Program-made: the position numbers and the translations under genes | Origin: a virus | Taxonomy: Duplodnaviria > Caudoviricetes | IMG/VR virus record: IMGVR_UViG_3300011102_000170 | Coordinates: 1 to 43,333 of that record | Strand: one strand, 5' to 3' | DNA length: 43,333 nt | Notes under the pieces: model-generated | Databases searched by the model: none | What the model was told of the DNA's origin: nothing | The model's input: only the letters and a program-made list of their open reading frames with translations | In this document: positions 16,115-38,870 of the stretch, piece after piece | Numbering within the stretch: the first letter of the stretch is position 1 | Layout: the number at the start of each line of letters is the position of its first letter

Positions 16115-16371
16115 CCGAGTTTGAAGGGCTCCGCTTCCGTGCCATCCGTAACCCTGAGTCCGGCACCCTGCGCTACGAGGCCACGCCGGAATACGAGGCA
16201 TGGCTGAAACAGCAGATTGCCCGTGCCGAGGCTGACGAGATGACGGTGGATCGATGGATCGTCGGCGGCATGGTGGGGAGGCTGGTCCGGCGTAACGGTG
16301 GCCCCGTGGAGATCGAGCCGTGTGACCCCGCACACGACGGCGAGCTGGTGATTCACGAGGAGGGAGACTAG
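16111..16371 (+). CDS. Hypothetical protein
   Basis: ATGA overlap. Confidence 0.65.
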   Translation: MTEFEGLRFRAIRNPESGTLRYEATPEYEAWLKQQIARAEADEMTVDRWIVGGMVGRLVRRNGGPVEIEPCDPAHDGELVIHEEGD

Positions 16372-16512
16372 ATGCACGAGTGCCGGTGCCCACACTGCAA
16401 CAAGCTCTTCGTGAAGCTGCGCCTCGTCGCGGCAAAACACGTTGAGGTCGAGGTGTGGTGCGATCGGTGCCGGCGCATGGTGATGATTCCTGTTACTCGC
16501 CGTGCGGCGTGA
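16372..16512 (+). CDS. Com-like zinc-ribbon protein (46 aa; absent from the ORF track)
   Basis: MHECRCPHCNKLFVKLRLVAAKHVEVEVWCDRCRRMVMIPVTRRAA; GGAG SD. Confidence 0.75.
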   Translation: MHECRCPHCNKLFVKLRLVAAKHVEVEVWCDRCRRMVMIPVTRRAA

Positions 16513-16531
16513 CAAATCCCGTGCAATAGCG

Positions 16532-16648
16532 TGATATAATCAGGACAACGCAAGATTGGCGTGAACACGCCCGGACCGTACTGCCGTGAGGGACACCGAT
16601 CCCCGTGCAGCATGGTCCGGGCGTTTCTGTTTGTCCCAGGAGGACACC
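16532..16648 (+). promoter_or_regulatory. Extended -10 promoter + structured leader of the scaffold/capsid operon
   Basis: TGA-TATAAT; ACGCCCGGACC...GGTCCGGGCGT stem followed by TTCTGTTTGT. Confidence 0.7.
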
Positions 16649-17194
16649 GTGACGGACCAGCAGCAGGCGCAGGACGCCAGCACCGACGTTGAGGCGCAGG
16701 ACGCCACGACCCAGGACGAAGCGCAAGAGTCGCAGCCCACGGGGTTCGATGCGCTGCCCAAGGAGACCCAGGACGAAATCCGGGCGCTCCGCCGCGAGAA
16801 CGCCAAGTACCGCAAGGCGGTCAAGGAGTTCGAGGACTCGCAGAAGTCCGACCTCGAGCGTCTGACCGGCGAGCGGGACGAGTTCAAGACCGAGTATGAG
16901 CGGGCGATGTCCGAGCTCCGGGATCTCAAGACGCAGGGCGTCTTTACCGAGGCGGCCGCCAAGGCAAACGCTCGGGCACCAAAGACGCTGTACCGGGCCT
17001 ATCGCGACCAACTCAAGTACGACGACGACGGCAACGTCACCAATCTGGAAGAGGTGATCGCGGCCGCCAAGCAGGATGAGCCGGACCTGTTCAAGCCAAG
17101 CACCGGCCATTCCGATGCCGGACGTCCTGGAGACAGCACCGGCGACAAGCCGACGATCAACAGCTTCTTCCGCCAACTGGCGGGGAAAGAGTAG
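16649..17194 (+). CDS. Capsid scaffolding protein
   Basis: AGGAGG SD + GTG; 'LRRENAKYR' coiled coil; precedes the major capsid gene. Confidence 0.85.
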   Translation: MTDQQQAQDASTDVEAQDATTQDEAQESQPTGFDALPKETQDEIRALRRENAKYRKAVKEFEDSQKSDLERLTGERDEFKTEYERAMSELRDLKTQGVFTEAAAKANARAPKTLYRAYRDQLKYDDDGNVTNLEEVIAAAKQDEPDLFKPSTGHSDAGRPGDSTGDKPTINSFFRQLAGKE

Positions 17195-17212
17195 ACAGAA
17201 AGCAGGGAACCC

Positions 17213-18160
17213 ATGGCGTACGACTCCCTGACGACGCGTGCTGACGTTCAGGCAATGATCCGAGAGCAAGTCTCGGATGTCATGCTGTCTGGGCTCCAGA
17301 CCTCCAGCGCCGTCCTCAACAACTTCACGCGGATCAACGTCCCGACCAACCAGACCCGGTTCCCGGTGCTGGCGGCGCTGCCTGACGCCTACTGGGTGAA
17401 CGGCGACACCGGCCAGAAGCAGACGACCGAGGCCAGCTGGGAGAACAAGTACCTCAACATCGAGGAGCTTGCCGCCATCGTCCCGATCCCGGACAGCGTG
17501 CTTGCCGATGCGTCGTTCGACATCTGGGGCAGCATCCGCCCGCTGGTTGAGAACGCCATCGCTCGCAAGCTCGACCAGGCCGTGTTCTTCGGCGTGAACA
17601 AGCCGGACAGCTTCCCCGTGGCCATCGCCCCGGCTGCTGTTGCGGCGGGCAACGTGGTGGCCCGTGGCACGACCGCGGCCAACGCTGGCGGCATTGCCGA
17701 GGACATCAACCTGCTTATGGGCGAGCTCATCGAGGACGGCTACATGCCGACCGCGTTCGTGGCGAACCCGACCTATCAGACGCGGCTCCGCTCCGCCCGT
17801 GACACCACCGGGCAGCTGCTGGCCGACGTCGGTGGCAGCGCCAACCAGATTTGGGGACTCCCCACCTCCTACCCGATGCCGGGCCTGTGGCCCACGGGCA
17901 ACGACGCGGCCGAGCTCTTCGCGCTGCAGCGGGAGAACTTCATCGTCGGCGTGCGCCAGGACTTCACCGTCACGGCGTCGAACCAGGCGGTGATTCAGGA
18001 TGGCACCGGCGCTATTGTCTACAACTCGTTCCAGCAGGACATGACGCTCTTCCGCATCGTGTTCCGGGCTGGCTGGGCCGTCTCCAACCCGATCAACTAC
18101 CAGGAGGAGACCGAAGCTGACCGCTACCCGGCCGCCGTCCTGCGCAGCCCCGCCGGCTAG
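17213..18160 (+). CDS. Major capsid protein (HK97 fold)
   Basis: 'AYWVNG', 'EELAAIVPI', 'FQQDMTLFR'; position. Confidence 0.92.
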   Translation: MAYDSLTTRADVQAMIREQVSDVMLSGLQTSSAVLNNFTRINVPTNQTRFPVLAALPDAYWVNGDTGQKQTTEASWENKYLNIEELAAIVPIPDSVLADASFDIWGSIRPLVENAIARKLDQAVFFGVNKPDSFPVAIAPAAVAAGNVVARGTTAANAGGIAEDINLLMGELIEDGYMPTAFVANPTYQTRLRSARDTTGQLLADVGGSANQIWGLPTSYPMPGLWPTGNDAAELFALQRENFIVGVRQDFTVTASNQAVIQDGTGAIVYNSFQQDMTLFRIVFRAGWAVSNPINYQEETEADRYPAAVLRSPAG

Positions 18161-18177
18161 AAGAGGAGCGCTGATTC

Positions 18178-18582
18178 ATGGCTAAGTCCCCACTGACGCA
18201 AGTGATTTCCGTCCCGGCCGCGCCGGTATCCACGGCCGCCAACGACCTCAACACCGTCCTCTTCGTGGCGCCGTTCGCGGGGACCGTGACGTCGGTGTCC
18301 TACGCGCCTACCGCTGACATCACCGGCGCCGCGACCAACAACCGCAAGGTCTCGGTGGTGAACGCGGCTGACGACGGCGACGGCACGACCGAGGTGGCCG
18401 AAGAGCAGTTCGTGAGCGGTGTCAACGCATCGCAGTACGCGGCGCTGGCCCTCACCCTCGCGAGTGACGCCGATGACCTCGAGTTCGCCGCTGGCGACGT
18501 GCTCGTCTGGAAGTCCACCCACATCGGGACCGGCATCGCGGATCCCGGCGGCACCGTGACCGTCACGATCAGCCGGAGCTAG
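18178..18582 (+). CDS. Putative capsid decoration protein
   Basis: Small, beta-strand- and Ala/Thr/Val-rich; directly after the major capsid gene. Confidence 0.55.
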   Translation: MAKSPLTQVISVPAAPVSTAANDLNTVLFVAPFAGTVTSVSYAPTADITGAATNNRKVSVVNAADDGDGTTEVAEEQFVSGVNASQYAALALTLASDADDLEFAAGDVLVWKSTHIGTGIADPGGTVTVTISRS

Positions 18583-18584
18583 CG

Positions 18585-18797
18585 ATGAGCGAGGAGGAGC
18601 GGGCGGCGGCGTACCGCCTCCAGTACGCGCGACGCAAGGCCTTTCAGGAGGCACAGGACGACGCGCTCGCTGGAGATGACGATGCCCTCGCCGCGCTCAC
18701 CGAGCGCTGGCAACCCATGATCGACTTCGTGAAGGAGGGCCCCGATGTCGGAGAACGAGACGAACCCGAATCAGAGGGCGGACAGCGCATCAACTGA
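18585..18797 (+). CDS. Hypothetical protein
   Basis: ORF in the head operon. Confidence 0.55.
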   Translation: MSEEERAAAYRLQYARRKAFQEAQDDALAGDDDALAALTERWQPMIDFVKEGPDVGERDEPESEGGQRIN

Positions 18798-18954
18798 CGA
18801 GTACGTGGATGTGGTTCGCCCCGATGGAAAGCCGTCTCGCATCACCCGCGCGGCCTTCCGGGGGATTTACCAGTACCGCGGGTGGAAGCTGGCTGACGAC
18901 AAGCCGGCCCGCAAGACGACTCGCAAGCGCACCACACGGAAGAAGGCAAGCTGA
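18745..18954 (+). CDS. Hypothetical protein with basic C-terminus
   Basis: AAGGAGG SD; stop overlaps next ATG. Confidence 0.6.
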   Translation: MSENETNPNQRADSASTDEYVDVVRPDGKPSRITRAAFRGIYQYRGWKLADDKPARKTTRKRTTRKKAS

Positions 18955-19367
18955 TGGCTGCCACGGACCCGATCACCAACGAGGTGCAGGCCCAGACGCT
19001 CATCGAGAACGCTGTGGCCTGGGACACCGATCCCGTGCTCACGGCGGATCAGGTGGCGCTGCTTGTAACGATGGCCACCTCGCAGGCGGACGACGATTCC
19101 GACCAGTGGACGGTCAGTGACCTCAACCGCGTCGTGTCGCTCGGGTGGAACTGGAAAGCCGCGGCTACCGCCTCGTCATTCAAGGTCGGGGTAGGCCCGG
19201 GCAAGACGTTCGACCTGCAGCAGCAGTACGAGCATTGCCTCCAGATGGCAGCGGCCTACGGCAACGGCACGCTCTCGGTGGTCGGTTCCGCCGACGCCAG
19301 CGACGGCACCGCCAGGCTCGGCGCCAAGATCGGGACGCTCACCATGACCTCGGTGATGAACACATGA
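18954..19367 (+). CDS. Head-tail adaptor/connector
   Basis: Position and size; 'WNWKAA'. Confidence 0.6.
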   Translation: MAATDPITNEVQAQTLIENAVAWDTDPVLTADQVALLVTMATSQADDDSDQWTVSDLNRVVSLGWNWKAAATASSFKVGVGPGKTFDLQQQYEHCLQMAAAYGNGTLSVVGSADASDGTARLGAKIGTLTMTSVMNT

Positions 19368-19744
19368 GCACCGCTGACCGCCTCTCTGGCATCGTGATCG
19401 GGCTCCGGCCCCTACACGACGATCTGGCCCTCCCGGACACCTGCGACATCGAGCGCGAGACGGAGACGCGGGACAGCCGCGGCAACATCGTCCGGACGTG
19501 GGGGACACACCTGGAGAACATCCGGTGTGCGCTCGACGTGGCGGGCCAGATGGGCCGTGAGTACGTGGTGGGGAGCGTGGAGTCCACGGAGGCCACGTAC
19601 ATCATCACGGTTCCGTACGACACCGACGTCACGGACAACGACCGGGTGGTGATTGGCGATCGCAGGTTCAACGTGATCACGGCGCGGCAGGGGGAAGGGT
19701 ACGAGATTGCCCGGACGCTCGAGTGCCGGGAGGTGTTCGCCTGA
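19364..19744 (+). CDS. Head closure/stopper protein (SPP1 gp16-like)
   Basis: 'DSRGN', 'VPYDTDVTDNDRVVIGDRRFNV'. Confidence 0.75.
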   Translation: MSTADRLSGIVIGLRPLHDDLALPDTCDIERETETRDSRGNIVRTWGTHLENIRCALDVAGQMGREYVVGSVESTEATYIITVPYDTDVTDNDRVVIGDRRFNVITARQGEGYEIARTLECREVFA

Positions 19745-20091
19745 TGGCCTCCGCCACGCTCAGCGTTCGCTCCAATCTCTTCCCGCGCATCGCCGCCCGG
19801 TTCCCGGTGGCGGCGGCTGGCGCCACCAACCAGGCGATTGCCCGGACCATTGAGGTTGCTGACCCGCTCACCCCGGTTGATACCGGCGCGCTGCGGGGTA
19901 ACAAGGTGATCCGAGCTGCAACCGGCGGCGATCCATCAGGCGAGATTCACTGGGCGCAGCACTACGCGGGGTATCAGGAGTTCGGCACCGTGCGCGGCAT
20001 CGTCGGCAAGCGCTACGCCCGGCAGGGGGCACAGGCCGGCGCGGCGCTGTGGCTGAATGAGCTCTCGCGGCTCGAAAGCGAGTTGCTGTGA
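19744..20091 (+). CDS. HK97 gp10-like neck protein
   Basis: 'TPVDTGALR', 'YAGYQEFGT'. Confidence 0.85.
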   Translation: MASATLSVRSNLFPRIAARFPVAAAGATNQAIARTIEVADPLTPVDTGALRGNKVIRAATGGDPSGEIHWAQHYAGYQEFGTVRGIVGKRYARQGAQAGAALWLNELSRLESELL

Positions 20092-20522
20092 TGTTCGGTG
20101 CCGAGATTGCCGCCGTTGCCGTCTACCAGGCGCTCGCGCCCGACGCGACGATTCAGGCCGCGGTCGACAACCGCATCCTCGCCATCGAGATCGTGCCGGA
20201 GGGCGTCGGGACACCCGCGGTGCTCCACCATCCGACCGGCAGCACCTACGAGGGGCCGATCTCCGGCCCGGCGGCAATGGAGCGGGTGCTGTACGCCGTG
20301 CGGCTCGTCTGTGAGGGCATCAGCACCGATCCGATCTGGGCAGCGGCCGAGCGCCAGATGGCGATTCTCGACGGCAACCAGTTCGCCGTCGTTGTGAACG
20401 AGGAACAGTACACGGTGGGCTTCACCGCTACGGGCGAGACGATCCCCACCACGGTCTATGAGGACGGGAACTACTACCGCCTCCTCGGCACCAACTACGA
20501 CGTGGACGTCACGAAAGGATAG
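20091..20522 (+). CDS. Tail terminator protein
   Basis: Lies between the gp10-like and major tail genes. Confidence 0.65.
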   Translation: MFGAEIAAVAVYQALAPDATIQAAVDNRILAIEIVPEGVGTPAVLHHPTGSTYEGPISGPAAMERVLYAVRLVCEGISTDPIWAAAERQMAILDGNQFAVVVNEEQYTVGFTATGETIPTTVYEDGNYYRLLGTNYDVDVTKG

Positions 20523-20528
20523 CGGACT

Positions 20529-21527
20529 ATGGGACGCTCGATGACCTATCAGGGTCTCTACCTCAAGAAGGAGACCACGCCGGGGACGGCCAACACCACC
20601 GGCATGCAACGCTACCTCGGCATCGGCGGCCGGCCCGGCTGGAACGTGGAGACACAGGAGTTCCGCGCCGAGGGGTACAAGACCAACACGACCTCGCAGC
20701 CGCTCATGGAAACCGGCCAGCACACCATCAACACCCTGCAGGACTACAACGCCCTGTTGCCGGTGCTGGCGTCCGTGCTGACCTATGACGGTGCCACGCA
20801 GCCCGACGCCGAGAACGCGGCCACGGCCTACGAGCACACGTTCCACCTCAACCCGACCGCGATGGACACGCTGACCACCTTCACGGGCATCTGGGGCGAC
20901 GCCACGCAGGCCATCCAGATGCTGTACCTGGTGTTCAACTCGCTCTCGTTCGGGATCCAGCGCGGCTCGCTCTCCGTGGGCACCAGCGCCATCAGCAAGG
21001 AACCGACTACCGGCGCCTCGCTGCCCACCTCGCCCACCACGGTCCCCTCGCAGCCGATCCCGGCCCGCTCCTACAGCGTCTACATCGATGACGCCTGGGC
21101 GGACCTGGGCAACACGAAGGCGACGGCGGTGTACGACTGGAACCTCAACATCGGTGACAAGCTCACCACGGACGCGCCGATCGACGCCGCGGTGACCTCG
21201 TTCGCCGGCCTCATCGACAATGAGGGCGTTGCCTACGATGGCAACTTCCAACTCGGGTTCGATGCCAGCGCCGTCAGCATGATTGGCGACTACAAGGCGG
21301 GCACGCAGAAGTTTGCCCGCGTGCATTCGGTCGGTCCCACGATCGGCGGGGACGTGACCTACGAACTGGAGGTAGACGCCTCACTCCTCGTTGTGCGACC
21401 GGGGGAGATCACGTCGGCGCCGAACGCGCCGGTGGTGGTGGTCCCGTTCGATTACATCCTCGTGCCGGACGCGACGTCGGGTAACGAGCTGACCGTGCGA
21501 CTGGTGAACGAAGTCGCCACCATCTAG
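20529..21527 (+). CDS. Major tail tube protein
   Basis: 'KETTPGT', 'YEHTF'; Thr-rich; position. Confidence 0.8.
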   Translation: MGRSMTYQGLYLKKETTPGTANTTGMQRYLGIGGRPGWNVETQEFRAEGYKTNTTSQPLMETGQHTINTLQDYNALLPVLASVLTYDGATQPDAENAATAYEHTFHLNPTAMDTLTTFTGIWGDATQAIQMLYLVFNSLSFGIQRGSLSVGTSAISKEPTTGASLPTSPTTVPSQPIPARSYSVYIDDAWADLGNTKATAVYDWNLNIGDKLTTDAPIDAAVTSFAGLIDNEGVAYDGNFQLGFDASAVSMIGDYKAGTQKFARVHSVGPTIGGDVTYELEVDASLLVVRPGEITSAPNAPVVVVPFDYILVPDATSGNELTVRLVNEVATI

Positions 21528-21539
21528 GAGACACAACCC

Positions 21540-21932
21540 ATGCCGAGTATCCAGCAGTTTGCTCGCGAGTCCGAGGATACCGTTCTCACGATCCGGGACA
21601 TCGACATCGCCGTCACCTTCAACCCGGATCGTGTCACCGTGGGCGCGATGAAGTCTGTCGCCCAACTCGAGCGGACGTACGACTTCGGCGCCGTGGCCGG
21701 TCTGCTCGACAATCTGGTGGAGGCGTGGGACGTGACCGGCCCCCTCTATGGGGAGGATGAGGACGGCGAGCCGGTGGAGCTCGTGGCCGATGGTGAGTCC
21801 ATCCCGTTCACGGAGGAGTGTCTGGAAGCGCTCGGCATGAACTTCGTGATGGAGTTCATGAACGAACTGCTCAGCAAGGCGACCGAAGGCCCAAACCCTA
21901 CCAGGGCGACACGCCGCTCCCGGAAGCGATAG
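21540..21932 (+). CDS. Tail assembly chaperone (G-like)
   Basis: Acidic; follows the major tail gene; slippery site near 3' end. Confidence 0.8.
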   Translation: MPSIQQFARESEDTVLTIRDIDIAVTFNPDRVTVGAMKSVAQLERTYDFGAVAGLLDNLVEAWDVTGPLYGEDEDGEPVELVADGESIPFTEECLEALGMNFVMEFMNELLSKATEGPNPTRATRRSRKR

Positions 21933-22153
21933 CGTGGGCATGGGTGAACCAGGACGCGTACGAAACGAACGTGGCTGAGGGGCTGATGGAGCCGTACCTG
22001 CCGGAGTGGCTGTCAGACTTCGCGATTGCGGAGGTGCTGAACATTCCGGTGCCAGAGGTGCGGCACCAGCCGCTCCGGATGCTGTGGCGGGCCAGCGTCG
22101 TGCTCAGGGCGCGGCAAGCGGCGGAGGCGATGCGAAAGGATCAGGGGACATGA
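21890..22153 (+). CDS. -1 frameshift extension of the tail chaperone (GT-like)
   Basis: C CCA AAC heptamer at 21890-21896; the -1 frame is open to 22153. Confidence 0.75.
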   Translation, partial: PKPYQGDTPLPEAIAWAWVNQDAYETNVAEGLMEPYLPEWLSDFAIAEVLNIPVPEVRHQPLRMLWRASVVLRARQAAEAMRKDQGT

Positions 22154-22335
22154 GGATCGCGCTCCGCTGTGATCGCCACCGCCACGCCTTCTACGACCCC
22201 GACGAACAGATACTCGAGATCCACTGTCGCAAGTGCAGCAAGGAGGCGGGCAAGCCCGTCTACCACCGCTGGCGCATCAAGGACGGCGTGTTGATCGGCG
22301 CCGACGACCCCCGCCCCATTAATCACCGGACATGA
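22150..22335 (+). CDS. Second, divergent Com-like zinc-ribbon protein (61 aa)
   Basis: 'LRCDRHRH...ILEIHCRKC'. Confidence 0.6.
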   Translation: MRIALRCDRHRHAFYDPDEQILEIHCRKCSKEAGKPVYHRWRIKDGVLIGADDPRPINHRT

Positions 22336-22384
22336 ACCTGCGCTATCCTAGGGGCGTCGTTCGGTGATTCGGAGGAGAGAGGGG

Positions 22385-22888
22385 ATGCGTTGGGTACTCG
22401 TCGTGATGCTGTTTGGGCTGGTGCCGACGTCGGTGGCCGCACAGACGCCACAGGCCACACCACAGGCGACGCCGGCCGTCATTGATTGCGGGTGGATTGA
22501 GAGCTACATGACCTTCTACCGCGACGCCGTGCCGGAGCGATCCGCCGACGAGTGGCACGTCATCGAGAAATGGCGCGACGGCGGCATTAACTACGCGACG
22601 GCACGCCCTTCCGAGGCGCGCATCCTGAGCGACTTCTTCGATGAGTTTGCATCGAACCTCGAGCGTATCCCTGAGCGCATGGTGCCGCCCCCGGTGGCGG
22701 AGTACCACGACGCCAGAATCCGGCAATACAGCATCTTTGCCGCTGGGTACAACGCGGTGGTTAACGGTGACATGTTCGCCGTGATGTTCTATTCCGAGCA
22801 GGAAGAGGATGTACGTGGGGCCATCAGGGATGCCTCCGACATACTTGAGCAGGCGTGCGGAGAGCGCTGGTCGTCGCATTGGGAATAG
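22385..22888 (+). CDS. Secreted moron protein
   Basis: Signal peptide (VAA-Q), QATP repeats, two Cys; own -10-like TATCCT at 22344. Confidence 0.75.
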   Translation: MRWVLVVMLFGLVPTSVAAQTPQATPQATPAVIDCGWIESYMTFYRDAVPERSADEWHVIEKWRDGGINYATARPSEARILSDFFDEFASNLERIPERMVPPPVAEYHDARIRQYSIFAAGYNAVVNGDMFAVMFYSEQEEDVRGAIRDASDILEQACGERWSSHWE

Positions 22889-22907
22889 CCCAATAACGGC
22901 CAGAATC

Positions 22908-22996
22908 TGATACACTAGGCACAGATTATCCCCACCGAGAACGCCTTCGAGCGCAGGGGCTGGTAACCAGCCGTCCACGCTCCGAGGCGTTTCCTC
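22908..22996 (+). promoter_or_regulatory. Extended -10 promoter + structured leader of the tape-measure gene
   Basis: TGA-TACACT; GAACGCC..GAGCG...CGCTC..GGCGTTT stem with inner GGCTGG-TAA-CCAGCC hairpin. Confidence 0.6.
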
Positions 22997-25900
22997 TTGG
23001 CAATCACGGCCGCTGACATCCGCGTGAAATTCTCGTCGGAAGGCGCTGGTGCTGTCCGTAGCGACATCACCGGTGTGGGCGGAGCCGTCGACGCTGTACA
23101 GGGCAAGCTCTCCTCCTGGGGCAAGAATCTCCGCACCACCGGCACCTGGCTGACAGCGGGGGTTACTACGCCGCTCGTCGCCTTTTTCACCACGGCCATC
23201 AACGGCGCTTCCTCGCTCGAACAGGCACAGGGCAAGGTCGACGCGGTGTTCAAGAACAGCGCCGACGTGGTGCAGCAGTGGTCCAAGACGACCGCCGACT
23301 CCATCGGCGTCTCGGAGACGCAAGCCCTCCAGTGGACCGGCACCATCGGCAACTTCTTCACCTCGGCGGGCATCGCGCACGACCAGGCGGCGCAGATGAG
23401 CCAGGACTTCATCACGCTCTCCGCCGACATGGCCGCCTTCAACGACGTCTCCGCCGCCCGCGCCTCAGACGCCCTTATCTCCGGTCTCGCTGGCGAGTAC
23501 GACGCGCTCCAGCGCCTCGGCATCAACATCAAGGCCGCCACGGTCGAGGAGGAAGCGCTCGCGATCGCAATGGCCGATGGTCGCGAGGAGATCACCGAGA
23601 ACGACCGCGCGCTGGCTCGCTACAACGTCATCATGCGGGAATCGGCCAACCAGCACGGCCAGTTCAAGCGTGAGGCGTCTGGATTCGCCGGGCAATTGGC
23701 GATCCTCAAGGCGCAATTCTCCGAGCTTGTCACCGAGATTGGCGGGCACCTCATTCCCCACGCGACGGCGTTCATCGGCGTGTTGCGGCAGTTGGTCGCG
23801 GGCATCGATGCGCTCAGCCCGTCCATGCAGCGTTGGGCCGTGGTGGCAGGGCTCGTGGCCGCTGCGCTGGGGCCGATCCTCATCGCCATTGGCCTGATGC
23901 TGCCAGGGCTCGGCGTCATGATCGGGCTCTTTGCCGCGATGGTGTCTCCGATCGGGCTGGTCGTGGCTGCCGTGGCTGCACTCGCCGTGGTGTTCCGCGG
24001 CCCGCTGATGAGTGGCCTGCGGAGAGTCGGGAGCACCGTCAAGGACGCCATCGACGCGTTCCGGGACATGTGGGACTCGCTCTCGGGGATCACGGAGATT
24101 GTCGAGCGATCGCAGGGCTTCTATGCCGAGTGGACCCGAACGGTCGAGGTTGCCACCAACGCCACAAACACGCTGAGCCGGTTCCTGTACTCCCTCGCTG
24201 CCGCGTTCGCCTCGATCGGCGGAGAGAACACGCCGGCATGGATTGCCGCTGTCTCGCGTGGGCTGATCGAAATGGCCCGAACCGTCGAGGAGCTGGTGGG
24301 CTGGTTCCAGACATTCCGGGAGCTTGGCATCAATCCGGTATCGTCGGCGTTGCTCGCGCTCGGGGCAACGTTTGAGCCGCTGATGCCGCTGATGTCCGAC
24401 CTGGCCGACATGGTAGCCAACCTGCAGGACGCGTTTCAGGCGTTCATGGATGGCAACTGGTCACTCGGCTTCGCTGAACTCGGCAACGCGGCACAGGATG
24501 CGTGGGGAGCTATCCAGGCCGGCATCGGGCTTATCAGTGAACTTGCGATGCAGGTGGCCGATTGGGTGCTGAACGTCGGCGCGCCCGCCGTTGTTGGCGC
24601 CGCTCAGGACATCTGGGACGCGGTTTCTGACTGGGTGGTAAATACCGCGTGGCCAACGGTGAAGGCTACGGCAATTGCTCTCGGTGATGTCGTTCTTGAC
24701 ATCGGTGGTTGGGCGCGTGGCAAAGCCCCGCAAATCTGGGAGTTTGTTTCGGGTTGGGTCCGTGCGTTGATCGCGACTGCCGGGAATGTGGCAGGCGAGA
24801 TCGCAGAGGCGACGCTGGACATCCTCGTGTGGGCGCGAGGGAAGGCCCCACAAGTTCGGGAGTTCGTCTCAACGTGGGTGGACTCACTGGTATCTACGGC
24901 GGGCAACGTCGCCGGAGTGATCGAATCCGCCACCGTGAACATCACGTCATGGGTGGAGGGCGAGGTTGCGGACATCACCAGTGCAATCGAGTCCTGGCTG
25001 GGCACGCCGCTCGTGCCGGTAACCGCCAATGGTGACGTGTCGTGGGGCGATGTCGGTGTCCCAGCCAATAGTTCAACCGCGCTGATGATCCGCGACAAAA
25101 TCGGTGACCTCACAGTTGGTGGCATCGTTGCGACGCTCGACTTCATCGGCGAGTTTGGGAGCCTTGAGGGGGTCGCGGAGACGATCACGGGCGCGAAGGA
25201 CTGGCTCGTGGGACAGGCACTCAAGGTTGCCGGCGTTGCGCTTGAGGTCAGCTTCCTTGCCAGCCTCGGCCCACTCGGGGTGAAGGGGCTCGCTGGCGTC
25301 GCTCTTGTCGTGGCGAATAACGTCGCGGACTACTTCGCCAATAACCCGCTCTCGCTGGTTGAGCTCGCCGTTGCGTTCAAAGCGATTCTCGATTCCGAGG
25401 CGTCCGACTTCGCGCTGGACATCGCCGCGATTGAGTTGGCGATTCTTGATGCGTTGGGCGTCGTGCCTGGTGCCCCGCTTCTGCTCGAACTGCCCACCAC
25501 GATCAAGGCCATGTGGGATGGCGAGATCGATCTAGGCTTTACGAAAGAAGACATTGTTGAGGGCATCATCAATAGCATCGTCCCTGGTGGTGGTGCGCTA
25601 GACATCGAGTTGCCCGTCGACATCAACCCCTTCAACAACGGTGATGAGAAGGACGGCGAAGGTGGCGGCACGTCAGGATCCACCCTGTTCGGTAGCAACT
25701 GGGGTGCTAGACTCGACGGCATCATCGAGGATATGCGGTCGGCTGCGGTCGCAGGGCTTGAATCCATCCGAGGCGACATCCAGACCAAAGCCGGGGAGTG
25801 GGCTTCTGCGCTCCAGGGCGGCATCGCGCCGCTCGGCGGAATCGCGGCTACCGCCTTCGGCGCGGTCAGCACGAGCGCGACAACAGGCCTGGGGGCTGCC

Positions 25901-26827
25901 ACGGCGGCGGTGATCGCCGGAACCGGGCAAATCCTGGCCGTGACCGTTACCAACCTCGGCAGCATGGCGGCGAGTGCGCTCGCCAGCTTCACCAGCATCC
26001 GCACAACGGCCACGACCAACACCACGGCGATGCAGGCGGGCGTCACCGCCGGTATGAACGCCATGCGGGCTACCTCCACCGCCGCTGTCGCCGGCATGCA
26101 GGCCGGGATTGCCGCCTCGATGCTCGTGATGCGGTCCTCGGCGGTCAGCAGCGCCAACGCGATGCAGAGCAGCGTCGTGGCCGCAATGACCAACATGGCG
26201 CTGCGCTCGGCTGCCGCTGTCCGATCCGGCATGGGCCAGATTCCCGGCATCATCGCCTCGGTCGGCGGGGCCGCGGCCGGCGTCGCCTTCAGTGTGGGCG
26301 CCGCGATCGGCAACGGTGTCGCCGCCGGCATGCTCTCCGCGCTCGGCACCATCCGGGCAGCGGCCAACGCCATGATCAGCGAGGCGCTACGGGCGGCACA
26401 GGCGCGCGCCATCATCGCCAGCCCCTCCAAGCTCTTTGAGCGCGAGGTCGGCGTCCACATCTCCGAGGGTGTCGCGGAGGGCATCGAGCGGGCGTCTGGC
26501 GTGGTGCAGCGGGCCGTCTCCGACATGCTCGACGTGAATGGCCTGCTCGATCGGCTCGTCTACCTCGTCAACGAGGAGGTCATCGGCGCCGTTCGCAACT
26601 CCATCCCCGAGGCCGGCACGTTCAGCAACCCGTACACGATCGGCCTGCCCGGCACGGCTGGCCGCCGCTACCCCACGCAGTTCGACAACCGCGTGATCTT
26701 CGAGGCCGGCAGCATCGTCCAGCGTGAGGGCGAGAGCACCCCGGAACTGGCGGAGCGCATCGCCAGCCTCATCGCCAAGATGCAAAACCGTGATCTGGAG
26801 ACCGTTATCGGAGGGTCGATGGTATGA
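22997..26827 (+). CDS. Tape measure protein
   Basis: 1276 aa, Ala/Gly-rich; Trp-spaced repeats; TM-like segments; C-terminal 'IASPSK'. Confidence 0.92.
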   Translation: MAITAADIRVKFSSEGAGAVRSDITGVGGAVDAVQGKLSSWGKNLRTTGTWLTAGVTTPLVAFFTTAINGASSLEQAQGKVDAVFKNSADVVQQWSKTTADSIGVSETQALQWTGTIGNFFTSAGIAHDQAAQMSQDFITLSADMAAFNDVSAARASDALISGLAGEYDALQRLGINIKAATVEEEALAIAMADGREEITENDRALARYNVIMRESANQHGQFKREASGFAGQLAILKAQFSELVTEIGGHLIPHATAFIGVLRQLVAGIDALSPSMQRWAVVAGLVAAALGPILIAIGLMLPGLGVMIGLFAAMVSPIGLVVAAVAALAVVFRGPLMSGLRRVGSTVKDAIDAFRDMWDSLSGITEIVERSQGFYAEWTRTVEVATNATNTLSRFLYSLAAAFASIGGENTPAWIAAVSRGLIEMARTVEELVGWFQTFRELGINPVSSALLALGATFEPLMPLMSDLADMVANLQDAFQAFMDGNWSLGFAELGNAAQDAWGAIQAGIGLISELAMQVADWVLNVGAPAVVGAAQDIWDAVSDWVVNTAWPTVKATAIALGDVVLDIGGWARGKAPQIWEFVSGWVRALIATAGNVAGEIAEATLDILVWARGKAPQVREFVSTWVDSLVSTAGNVAGVIESATVNITSWVEGEVADITSAIESWLGTPLVPVTANGDVSWGDVGVPANSSTALMIRDKIGDLTVGGIVATLDFIGEFGSLEGVAETITGAKDWLVGQALKVAGVALEVSFLASLGPLGVKGLAGVALVVANNVADYFANNPLSLVELAVAFKAILDSEASDFALDIAAIELAILDALGVVPGAPLLLELPTTIKAMWDGEIDLGFTKEDIVEGIINSIVPGGGALDIELPVDINPFNNGDEKDGEGGGTSGSTLFGSNWGARLDGIIEDMRSAAVAGLESIRGDIQTKAGEWASALQGGIAPLGGIAATAFGAVSTSATTGLGAATAAVIAGTGQILAVTVTNLGSMAASALASFTSIRTTATTNTTAMQAGVTAGMNAMRATSTAAVAGMQAGIAASMLVMRSSAVSSANAMQSSVVAAMTNMALRSAAAVRSGMGQIPGIIASVGGAAAGVAFSVGAAIGNGVAAGMLSALGTIRAAANAMISEALRAAQARAIIASPSKLFEREVGVHISEGVAEGIERASGVVQRAVSDMLDVNGLLDRLVYLVNEEVIGAVRNSIPEAGTFSNPYTIGLPGTAGRRYPTQFDNRVIFEAGSIVQREGESTPELAERIASLIAKMQNRDLETVIGGSMV

Positions 26828-38293: not shown

Positions 38294-38545
38294 GGGAGGG
38301 TCGACCGTGGGCTACATCAAGATTGAGGTGCCGAAGCCGTCGACCAGGACCAAGCCACCGAAAGGAGCGGGTGTGCCCCGTAAAACCAATCCGGGGCGGT
38401 AGCCATGCCCCAGCGACAACGGAACCTGCTCAGGCGTGAAACCGGGACGTCGTGCCGACTCTGGCGGCGGTCGCATTGGATTCGCTGGATACGCTCGACG
38501 TCGCGGCGGTGATACGATTGGCTCGCCCGGTGGTATACTCGACAC

Positions 38546-38870
38546 AGGCAATGGGCCGGTGACAAGAGGTCCGGGACCTCTTCCCTCGGGATAGCCGGTA
38601 CCGCCGAACGTGGCCGGAGCGAAGTCCGGTCCCTCTGGCAGACGGGGTGACGGTCTGCCCCTCAGCCTGATCTCCCATGTTGGAGAAACAGATGAGCGAA
38701 CCCCTCGGTCATGGCAGGAGTTGATCGCCTTGCCTCCGAGGGGTTCGTTGTCCGTGGTCCCGGCATTGCGGTGTAGAATGGGACGAGGCAGCCCACAAGG
38801 GACTGCCCCATCTCTTCGCACCCGCCGGTCACACTCCATCCCCCGTGGCCGGCGGTGCTGCTTCCCATTG
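38546..38870 (+). ncRNA. Candidate structured non-coding RNA(s)
   Basis: TGG-TATACT promoter at 38531-38539, then at least six stem-loops; no convincing ORF. Confidence 0.45.

Follow-up and report, generated by a model that had tools for sequence, protein, structure and literature searches.

Putative protein-gated RNA leaders ahead of the scaffold and tape-measure genes of a temperate phage

In phage lambda a promoter and a short terminated leader, pR'-tR', precede the late genes. The block is lifted by antitermination through the Q protein, which loads through a DNA site. For Com of phage Mu, to our knowledge, a single target has been characterised. The passages available from PMC6483171 give this target as 19 letters, with CC(N)2-3GAG in a loop closed by a C-G pair as the bound part, and those from PMC3299994 place Mu Com and its homologues before methyltransferase genes. 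Structured RNAs have also been reported upstream of GP20 genes, including GP20-a (RF02991) and GP20-b (RF03003), with six candidates (PMC10690425, available passages). Here we examined the virus record IMGVR_UViG_3300011102_000170, a complete record of 43,333 bases with 65% G+C which was analysed over its whole length and is called the window below. It carries two hairpin leaders, leader 1 before the capsid scaffold gene and leader 2 before a likely tape-measure gene, and a gene for a small Com-like zinc-ribbon protein, Zn1.

Probably both leaders are gated by a protein. Tentatively, we take them for Com-type RNA switches, with Zn1 likely serving both. According to this proposal host RNA polymerase would start at extended -10 sites. 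Without Zn1, e.g. in a lysogen, the long stem of leader 1 would fold beside a U-rich run and transcription would stop, and leader 2 would fold over the ribosome binding site (RBS) of the tape-measure gene. Zn1, once made, would bind and hold the 5' hairpin of each nascent leader so that the base of the long stem could not close. This would prevent the terminator of leader 1 and free the hidden ribosome site of leader 2. Promoter activity, termination, protein binding, the direction of control and its timing are what we infer from sequence and predicted folds. Except where a relative is named, the leaders, their hairpins and promoter-like sites and the genes for Zn1, the second zinc ribbon Zn2, the scaffold, the moron-like insert and the likely tape measure are all on the + strand.

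The original prediction, made from the sequence alone, had placed an extended -10 site at each leader. These were found as TGATATAAT at 16532..16540 and TGATACACT at 22908..22916; the latter aligns with similar sites in the relatives L179 and L052. The pattern TGNTAYAMT occurs five times in the window compared to 0.64 expected, and none of 100 shuffles reached five. Two further extended -10 sites are located at 2420-2560 and 38531-38680; the folds downstream of them have z-scores (here and below against shuffled sequence) of -3.21 and -0.23. The two leaders resemble each other. ACGCC-N35-60-GGCGTTTC has exactly two sites, 16567 and 22941, one per leader, against 0.08 expected, and AGATT is upstream of it in both; as the pattern was drawn from both leaders, it shows mutual resemblance only. 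A duplicated pair of units had been proposed. We abandoned this because Zn2 belongs to another family and the 5' hairpins differ. The shared AGATT and GGCGTTTC were ruled out as marks of a duplication as both recur at unrelated leaders of the group. Similarly, terminator-like stems throughout this phage group commonly close with GGCGTTT, which therefore does not prove leader duplication.

Folding supported hairpins at both sites. Leader 1 (16546-16635) has a minimum free energy of -45.4 kcal/mol and a z-score of -4.92; for leader 2 (22918-23010) z is -3.20. In leader 1 a small 5' hairpin (16558..16571) shares its 3' arm with a long hairpin (16567..16633), i.e. the small hairpin and the base of the long stem both use ACGCC. 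Prefix folding showed the small hairpin at 16571-16583, 16595 and 16613-16619; it was missing at 16589 and 16601-16607, and once the prefix reached 16625 it was displaced. The competition between the two structures, as originally suggested, was thus confirmed in the predicted folds. The long hairpin is followed directly by a U-rich run (6 U in 8), and this predicted layout is that of an intrinsic terminator. A simple terminator scan, which requires a short hairpin, did not call it. The GTG start of the scaffold gene (16649) and its RBS (AGGAGG, 16638-16643) are about 20 nucleotides past the U-run and outside the long stem; the predicted accessibility of this RBS is nearly independent of the state of the long stem. 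In leader 2 the RBS is part of the 3' arm. Therefore, the proposal that the leaders are terminator-like or RBS-occluding was divided: the first description applies to leader 1, the second to leader 2.

The order of a promoter-like site and a terminator-like stem in leader 1 would also suit a free small RNA of about 85 nucleotides with a job of its own, e.g. in the lysogen, control of the downstream genes being secondary. This is very improbable. The inner stems of the leaders have no sequence in common across relatives, leader 2 overlaps the RBS of its own gene, and an Rfam scan of the window yielded four matches at E<=5 (best E 0.76), none of them credible and none GP20-a or GP20-b. A contig from an RNA run covers 16621-16798; contigs cannot show transcript ends.

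The scaffold RBS itself is in a small hairpin with a CAGGA loop (16632..16651 together with the GTG start), the only strict Com-motif match near the 5' hairpin of leader 1. Being past the U-run, and with similar loops repeated inside the scaffold gene, it was rejected as a Com switch for leader 1. Three CAGGA-loop hairpins span the RBS and first codons (16632-16646, 16666-16678 and 16693-16705), with similar repeats in relatives. Compared with shuffles, the fold of this region does not stand out (z -1.18). Possibly these hairpins are sites of scaffold autoregulation.

The long hairpin of leader 2 (22939..22999) contains the RBS GAGG (22984-22987) in its 3' arm, ahead of the TTG start at 22997; the predicted unpaired probability of this RBS is at most 0.09. 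Within the 5' arm of the long stem is a Com-type site, a 3-bp stem with a C-N3-GA hexaloop (22939..22953). The strict motif, CC(N)2-3GAG in a C-G-closed loop, is present at 22942-22953, and of the first 14 letters of the Mu target, as given in the available passages of PMC6483171, 12 are matched in leader 2; no site on the two strands of the window matches better. In the Com-bearing relative L003/L179 a strict site occupies the equivalent position and the GAGGCG arm is shared; the sequence of this relative aligns with leader 2 over promoter, site and arm. Loop motif, predicted burial of the RBS and L003/L179 thus argue for a Com-type switch, as had been suggested, in leader 2. For leader 1 such a switch is probable: its 5' hairpin has the usual position and shared arm, and the hairpins compete as in Com-bearing relatives; in addition, leader 1 and Zn1 were apparently transferred together (see below).

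Both predicted zinc-ribbon genes are present as open reading frames (ORFs) with an RBS. Zn1 (16372..16512), the last gene of the terminase-portal block, codes for a Com-like CCCC zinc ribbon (CxxC..CxxC) of 46 amino acids. Among PHROG profiles it matched phrog_6417, translational regulator (E 2.4e-5), and phrog_13819, gpCom (E 7.4e-5); against Pfam PF10122 (Zn_ribbon_Com) it scored 10.3 bits, below the gathering score of 22.9. C6, C9, C30 and C33 are invariant in seven of seven aligned Com-like ORFs, and Zn1 has the four cysteines of the Com family. Its structure model has four beta strands at a predicted local distance difference test (pLDDT) of 82. A homologue search started from the Zn1 sequence alone returned no candidates. 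Hence, of the claim that both proteins are Com-like, the part concerning Zn1 stood by PHROG; Zn2 is a separate CHCC family with a remote likeness.

We then compared relatives. With the capsid alignment 160 loci were fetched; most were distant, had neither leader nor Com and were therefore kept out of the class table described below. Ten close relatives had a capsid identity of at least 59% and enough upstream DNA. In nine of these a promoter-like hexamer and a T-run precede the scaffold gene. A Com-like ORF is located upstream in three of the nine (complete in L003, truncated at the contig end in L007 and L013) and a short helical ORF in four (L001, L002, L104 and L019). The expected co-occurrence was thus partial: the scaffold leader is kept, Com is not always. 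The helical family is rich in Arg and Leu (L001:2065-2160, L002:9179-9283, L104:5987-6058, L019:3756-3851, L479, L475 and L183), and none of six members matched PHROG, the collection searched. It is a candidate for a new RNA-binding regulator. Among 192 genomes of the order, Com-like loci were detected in eight (at least one a host gene) and helical loci in eight, several of them weak.

Does the hairpin type follow the upstream protein? The class table comprises 27 hand-picked leaders, 13 Com-class, 8 helical-class and 6 others. Left out were L022, L041, L064, L468, L469, L472, L476 and L480, for which no promoter anchor was set, and L466 as a near copy of L463; overlap of stem arms was judged from per-locus folds and reading. 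A relaxed Com loop was found in 9/13 Com-class, 0/8 helical-class and 1/6 other leaders (Fisher p 0.005), and a helical-type 3x3 internal loop in 5/8 helical-class, 0/13 Com-class and 0/6 other leaders (Fisher p 0.003); these p-values are optimistic because both rules were drawn after most scored leaders had been seen and three phages give two rows each, which counts against the reading the table would support. Shuffle rates were 0.03-0.22 for the relaxed and at most 0.03 for the helical rule. The hairpin with the 3x3 loop in those five helical-class leaders overlaps the terminator-like stem. L479, found by its protein alone, then turned out to have the helical-type hairpin; L475, found likewise, lacks it. 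Com-type loops keep their pairing despite differing stem sequences (L003, L007, L013, L178 and L341).

Relatives also bear on the question whether one protein serves two leaders. Com-bearing L003/L179 has the strict motif in the head leader and in the tape-measure leader. L002 has a helical ORF and a helical-type hairpin at both leaders, and no Com-like match was found in the 19 kb available. With one type at both leaders in each phage, this favours one regulator acting on two leaders. In L052 Com is located directly before a tape-measure-like gene whose RBS is in a stem arm.

Strains very close to the window phage provided a further line of evidence. Eighteen sequencing runs contain at least half of the words of the region, one of these runs being a possible source of the window. 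In four of four runs, from four studies, a contig with different letters up to 16621 continues as the window from there on; the deviating stretch holds another inverted repeat which ends at the same U-run. Two of the four (X2 and X8) in addition have contigs that diverge from the window at 16367-16371; both runs carry the window's own version as well, at lower depth. As no contig spans both joints, we infer that Zn1, promoter and leader 1 were swapped as one block. Judged by these contigs, near-identical strains appear to exchange Zn1 and leader 1 together. This exchange of regulator and leader, including the zinc-free family, is the new part of the finding.

Several observations weigh against Com-type switching by Zn1. 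The main weakness is that the loops differ in the window phage. The 5' hairpin of leader 1 lacks the Com loop CC(N)2-3GAG under strict and relaxed rules; a single protein would therefore need to recognise loops that are unlike. The difference could reflect a recent cassette swap, or Zn2 could read leader 2, as a locus in genome G169 hints (see below). A 12/14 match to the Mu target is expected by chance 0.52 times per window and the window has 35 hairpins with the strict motif; therefore the weight rests on the position and conservation of the site. The strict motif did not separate the classes (4/13 Com-class, 0/8 helical-class, 1/6 others; p 0.13). Energetically, holding the small hairpin of leader 1 costs 8.5 kcal/mol and the freed arm re-pairs elsewhere; for the Com hairpin of leader 2 the penalty is 13.5 kcal/mol, and of the four RBS letters just two become free, the release remaining partial since a local hairpin forms instead. 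For a switch to work the small hairpin would have to be captured during transcription, which prefix folding allows for leader 1 and barely for leader 2. A first exact search for leader 1 patterns in viral contigs gave no match; a search with the leader 1 pattern gave at least 94 distinct chance-like cases among at least 120 loci, none of those listed being convincingly beside Com. Finally, L057 and L095, two of the nine close relatives, have a terminator-like leader and no small ORF seen upstream.

Some of these points would suit a phage without any protein-RNA switch. Ordinary terminators and RBS dampers would then quiet internal promoters and set stoichiometry, the hairpins would be passed by read-through or by a DNA-level activator, and the zinc ribbons would act elsewhere. 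The dominance of the long stems and the two leaders with no small ORF seen fit this alternative, as does the scaffold leader without a zinc-ribbon gene in six of the nine close relatives. The latter also speaks against the claim that each zinc ribbon has its own leader. Further, a fold search with the Zn1 model returned generic zinc ribbons only, none at E<=0.001, and the leader 1 hairpin sequence does not recur beside Com among the matches listed. We nevertheless doubt this explanation because the hairpin type follows the upstream protein family, including L479, and because the pairing of Com-type loops is kept through different stems. In addition, a scan for GAGCGCC stems gave 110 matches with a credible zinc-ribbon ORF upstream in five, three of which are before head-like genes; under the rule used, an upstream CC-N-GAG site and a zinc ribbon never occurred together among the 110, the tape-measure case being outside the scan.

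The second zinc ribbon was examined separately. Zn2 (22150..22335) is an ORF with RBS for 61 amino acids with CHCC ligands (CxxHxH..CxxC). Conserved in its family are the C, H, C and C plus one further His. All eight aligned members matched the unannotated phrog_5278, and 54 representatives were retrieved at E<=0.001 among 1.84 billion. No match of Zn2 to Com was found in Pfam, PHROGs or NCBIfam. With HHalign the Zn2 profile aligned to the set of seven Com-like sequences with a probability of 92.6 over 37 columns. By sequence, Zn2 thus is a family distinct from Zn1, its likeness to Com being remote only. The structure model is a beta-ribbon plus helix (pLDDT 77); fold searches with it gave no match at E<=0.001 and the look-alikes in a protein atlas are unnamed clusters. 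A Zn2-family query matched 116 of 50,697 annotated phage records. A search across the phylum gave weak matches only, and Zn2 alignments proved too divergent to retrieve viral loci; the phrog_5278 profile matched 0/401 phylum genomes and likewise 0/14 controls, a negative that carries no information.

Could Zn1 gate leader 1 and Zn2 gate leader 2? Such dedicated pairs would account for the differing loops, and Zn2 is remotely Com-like, as the alignment indicates. Zn2-family genes are found upstream of the tape measure or a tape-measure-like gene in the window, in L003 (two copies) and in G169. In G169 Zn2 is directly followed by a promoter-like site, a hairpin and a tape-measure-like gene, and no Com-like gene was found in the genome, a case that weighs against Zn1 or another Com as the sole key. 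Moreover, Zn2 and leader 2 regions are still covered in the runs in which most contig depth lacks Zn1. On the other side, in seven of seven cultured actinophages examined, taken from the 116 records, the Zn2-family gene is immediately followed by the major tail protein gene, without a leader, and the Com-type loop is absent from the 110 bases before the tail gene start in all seven. In G187, too, it abuts a probable tail gene (gene identity provisional) without a leader. The G169 leader has no Com loop, inserts of about 5 kb separate Zn2 from the leader in L003, and Com is present as well in both phages that have the loop ahead of the tape measure. Dedicated pairs are therefore unlikely. As the usual place of Zn2 is leaderless, it most likely is a tail-module gene that is dispensable for the switch, and we retain Zn1 as the tentative regulator of both leaders.

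The G169 locus (G169:C10:111000-127000, L323 and L324) is a small island with an integrase-like gene, the Zn2 homologue, promoter-like site, hairpin leader and tape-measure-like gene. In the 30 kb read we recognised no ORF resembling a capsid gene, and the island is satellite-like. Other arrangements were noticed elsewhere. In L181:8194-8364 (G016) and L419 a C-C-H-H zinc-ribbon variant precedes head-gene leaders with AGCGCC repeats and a terminator-like stem; this is a third protein type at the head-leader position. In L472 (G174:C40) a Com-like ORF is doubled and several CC-N3-GAG repeats come after it; L339 (G187:C37) has a Com-like ORF, a leader with repeats plus terminator and then a lysin-like gene.

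Taken further, small gene, promoter and leader would form a cassette that is exchanged among phages, and relatives would place an unrelated helical protein with its own hairpin type at the same position. It is possible, although we regard this as speculative, that interchangeable small-protein/RNA cassettes gate the late genes of this temperate-phage group. Gene, promoter and scaffold leader would swap as a block, Com-type and zinc-free helical families would each read their own hairpin, and one key would throw both switches, that of the terminator ahead of the head genes and that of the ribosome site ahead of the tape measure. This would be a private lock, shareable by satellites such as the G169 island.

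The remaining gene layout is as follows. The window encodes terminase, portal, Mu-F, scaffold and capsid genes. The scaffold gene (16649..17194) matched PF06810 (E 1.8e-13), which we take to be the former GP20 family; the major capsid gene (17213-18160; PF05065, E 6.5e-26) follows. A slippery-type heptamer is present at 21890-21896, where two tail-chaperone frames overlap, and is kept in L003:14503-14509; presumably it fits a -1 frameshift. Between Zn2 and leader 2 a moron-like gene is inserted (22385..22888) with a hydrophobic N-terminus read directly from the sequence. It had no Pfam or NCBIfam match and a weak PHROG match (E 0.18); two diverged versions exist among close strains. The gene with the TTG start (22997..26827, 1276 amino acids) had no Pfam match and is a likely tape measure, judged by its length, Ala/Gly content and a position following the tail chaperone genes. 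The phage is temperate, and integrase-like and repressor-like ORFs are located near 39-41 kb (labels read from the sequence by eye). The closest capsid relative among named genomes, 81% identical, is in a metagenome-assembled genome of Thermomicrobiales, therefore this order is the likely host group.

A search that left subscription literature largely outside gave no paper in which Com-like proteins control head or tape-measure genes; the supplement of PMC5737381 may discuss such motifs. If the leaders work as predicted, Com-type proteins would be regulators of termination and translation of late genes in temperate phages. Under the same condition the helical family would represent small RNA-binding regulators of a new class, for which a target motif is already defined. 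The matched variants of protein and loop would be a ready set for specificity tests and, possibly, orthogonal RNA switches.

How does the locus compare with the known systems? As in Mu Com/mom there is a small CCCC zinc-ribbon protein, Zn1, and in leader 2 a short hairpin with a C-G-closed hexaloop containing CC(N)2-3GAG. The structure next to this hairpin may hide start signals as in Mu, the RBS being predicted as paired but freed in part only when the site is held. Unlike in Mu, the downstream genes are those of the scaffold and the likely tape measure and not mom or a DNA methyltransferase gene; leader 2 has its own promoter-like site and is 6.4 kb away from the gene for the Com-like protein; the motif is missing from leader 1, which resembles a terminator; Zn1 remains under the Pfam cut-off, and Zn2 has CHCC ligands. 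Like GP20-a and GP20-b, leader 1 is a structured RNA directly upstream of a PF06810 scaffold gene; in contrast to these RNAs it is one of two leaders in a window without a credible Rfam match and has a proposed protein partner, whereas the available passages of PMC10690425 name none. The pR'-tR' region of lambda is similar in having a promoter and a short terminated leader before late genes, with a block lifted by a phage protein, as is proposed here. Unlike with lambda Q, the evidence here suggests competition between an RNA hairpin and the terminator stem.

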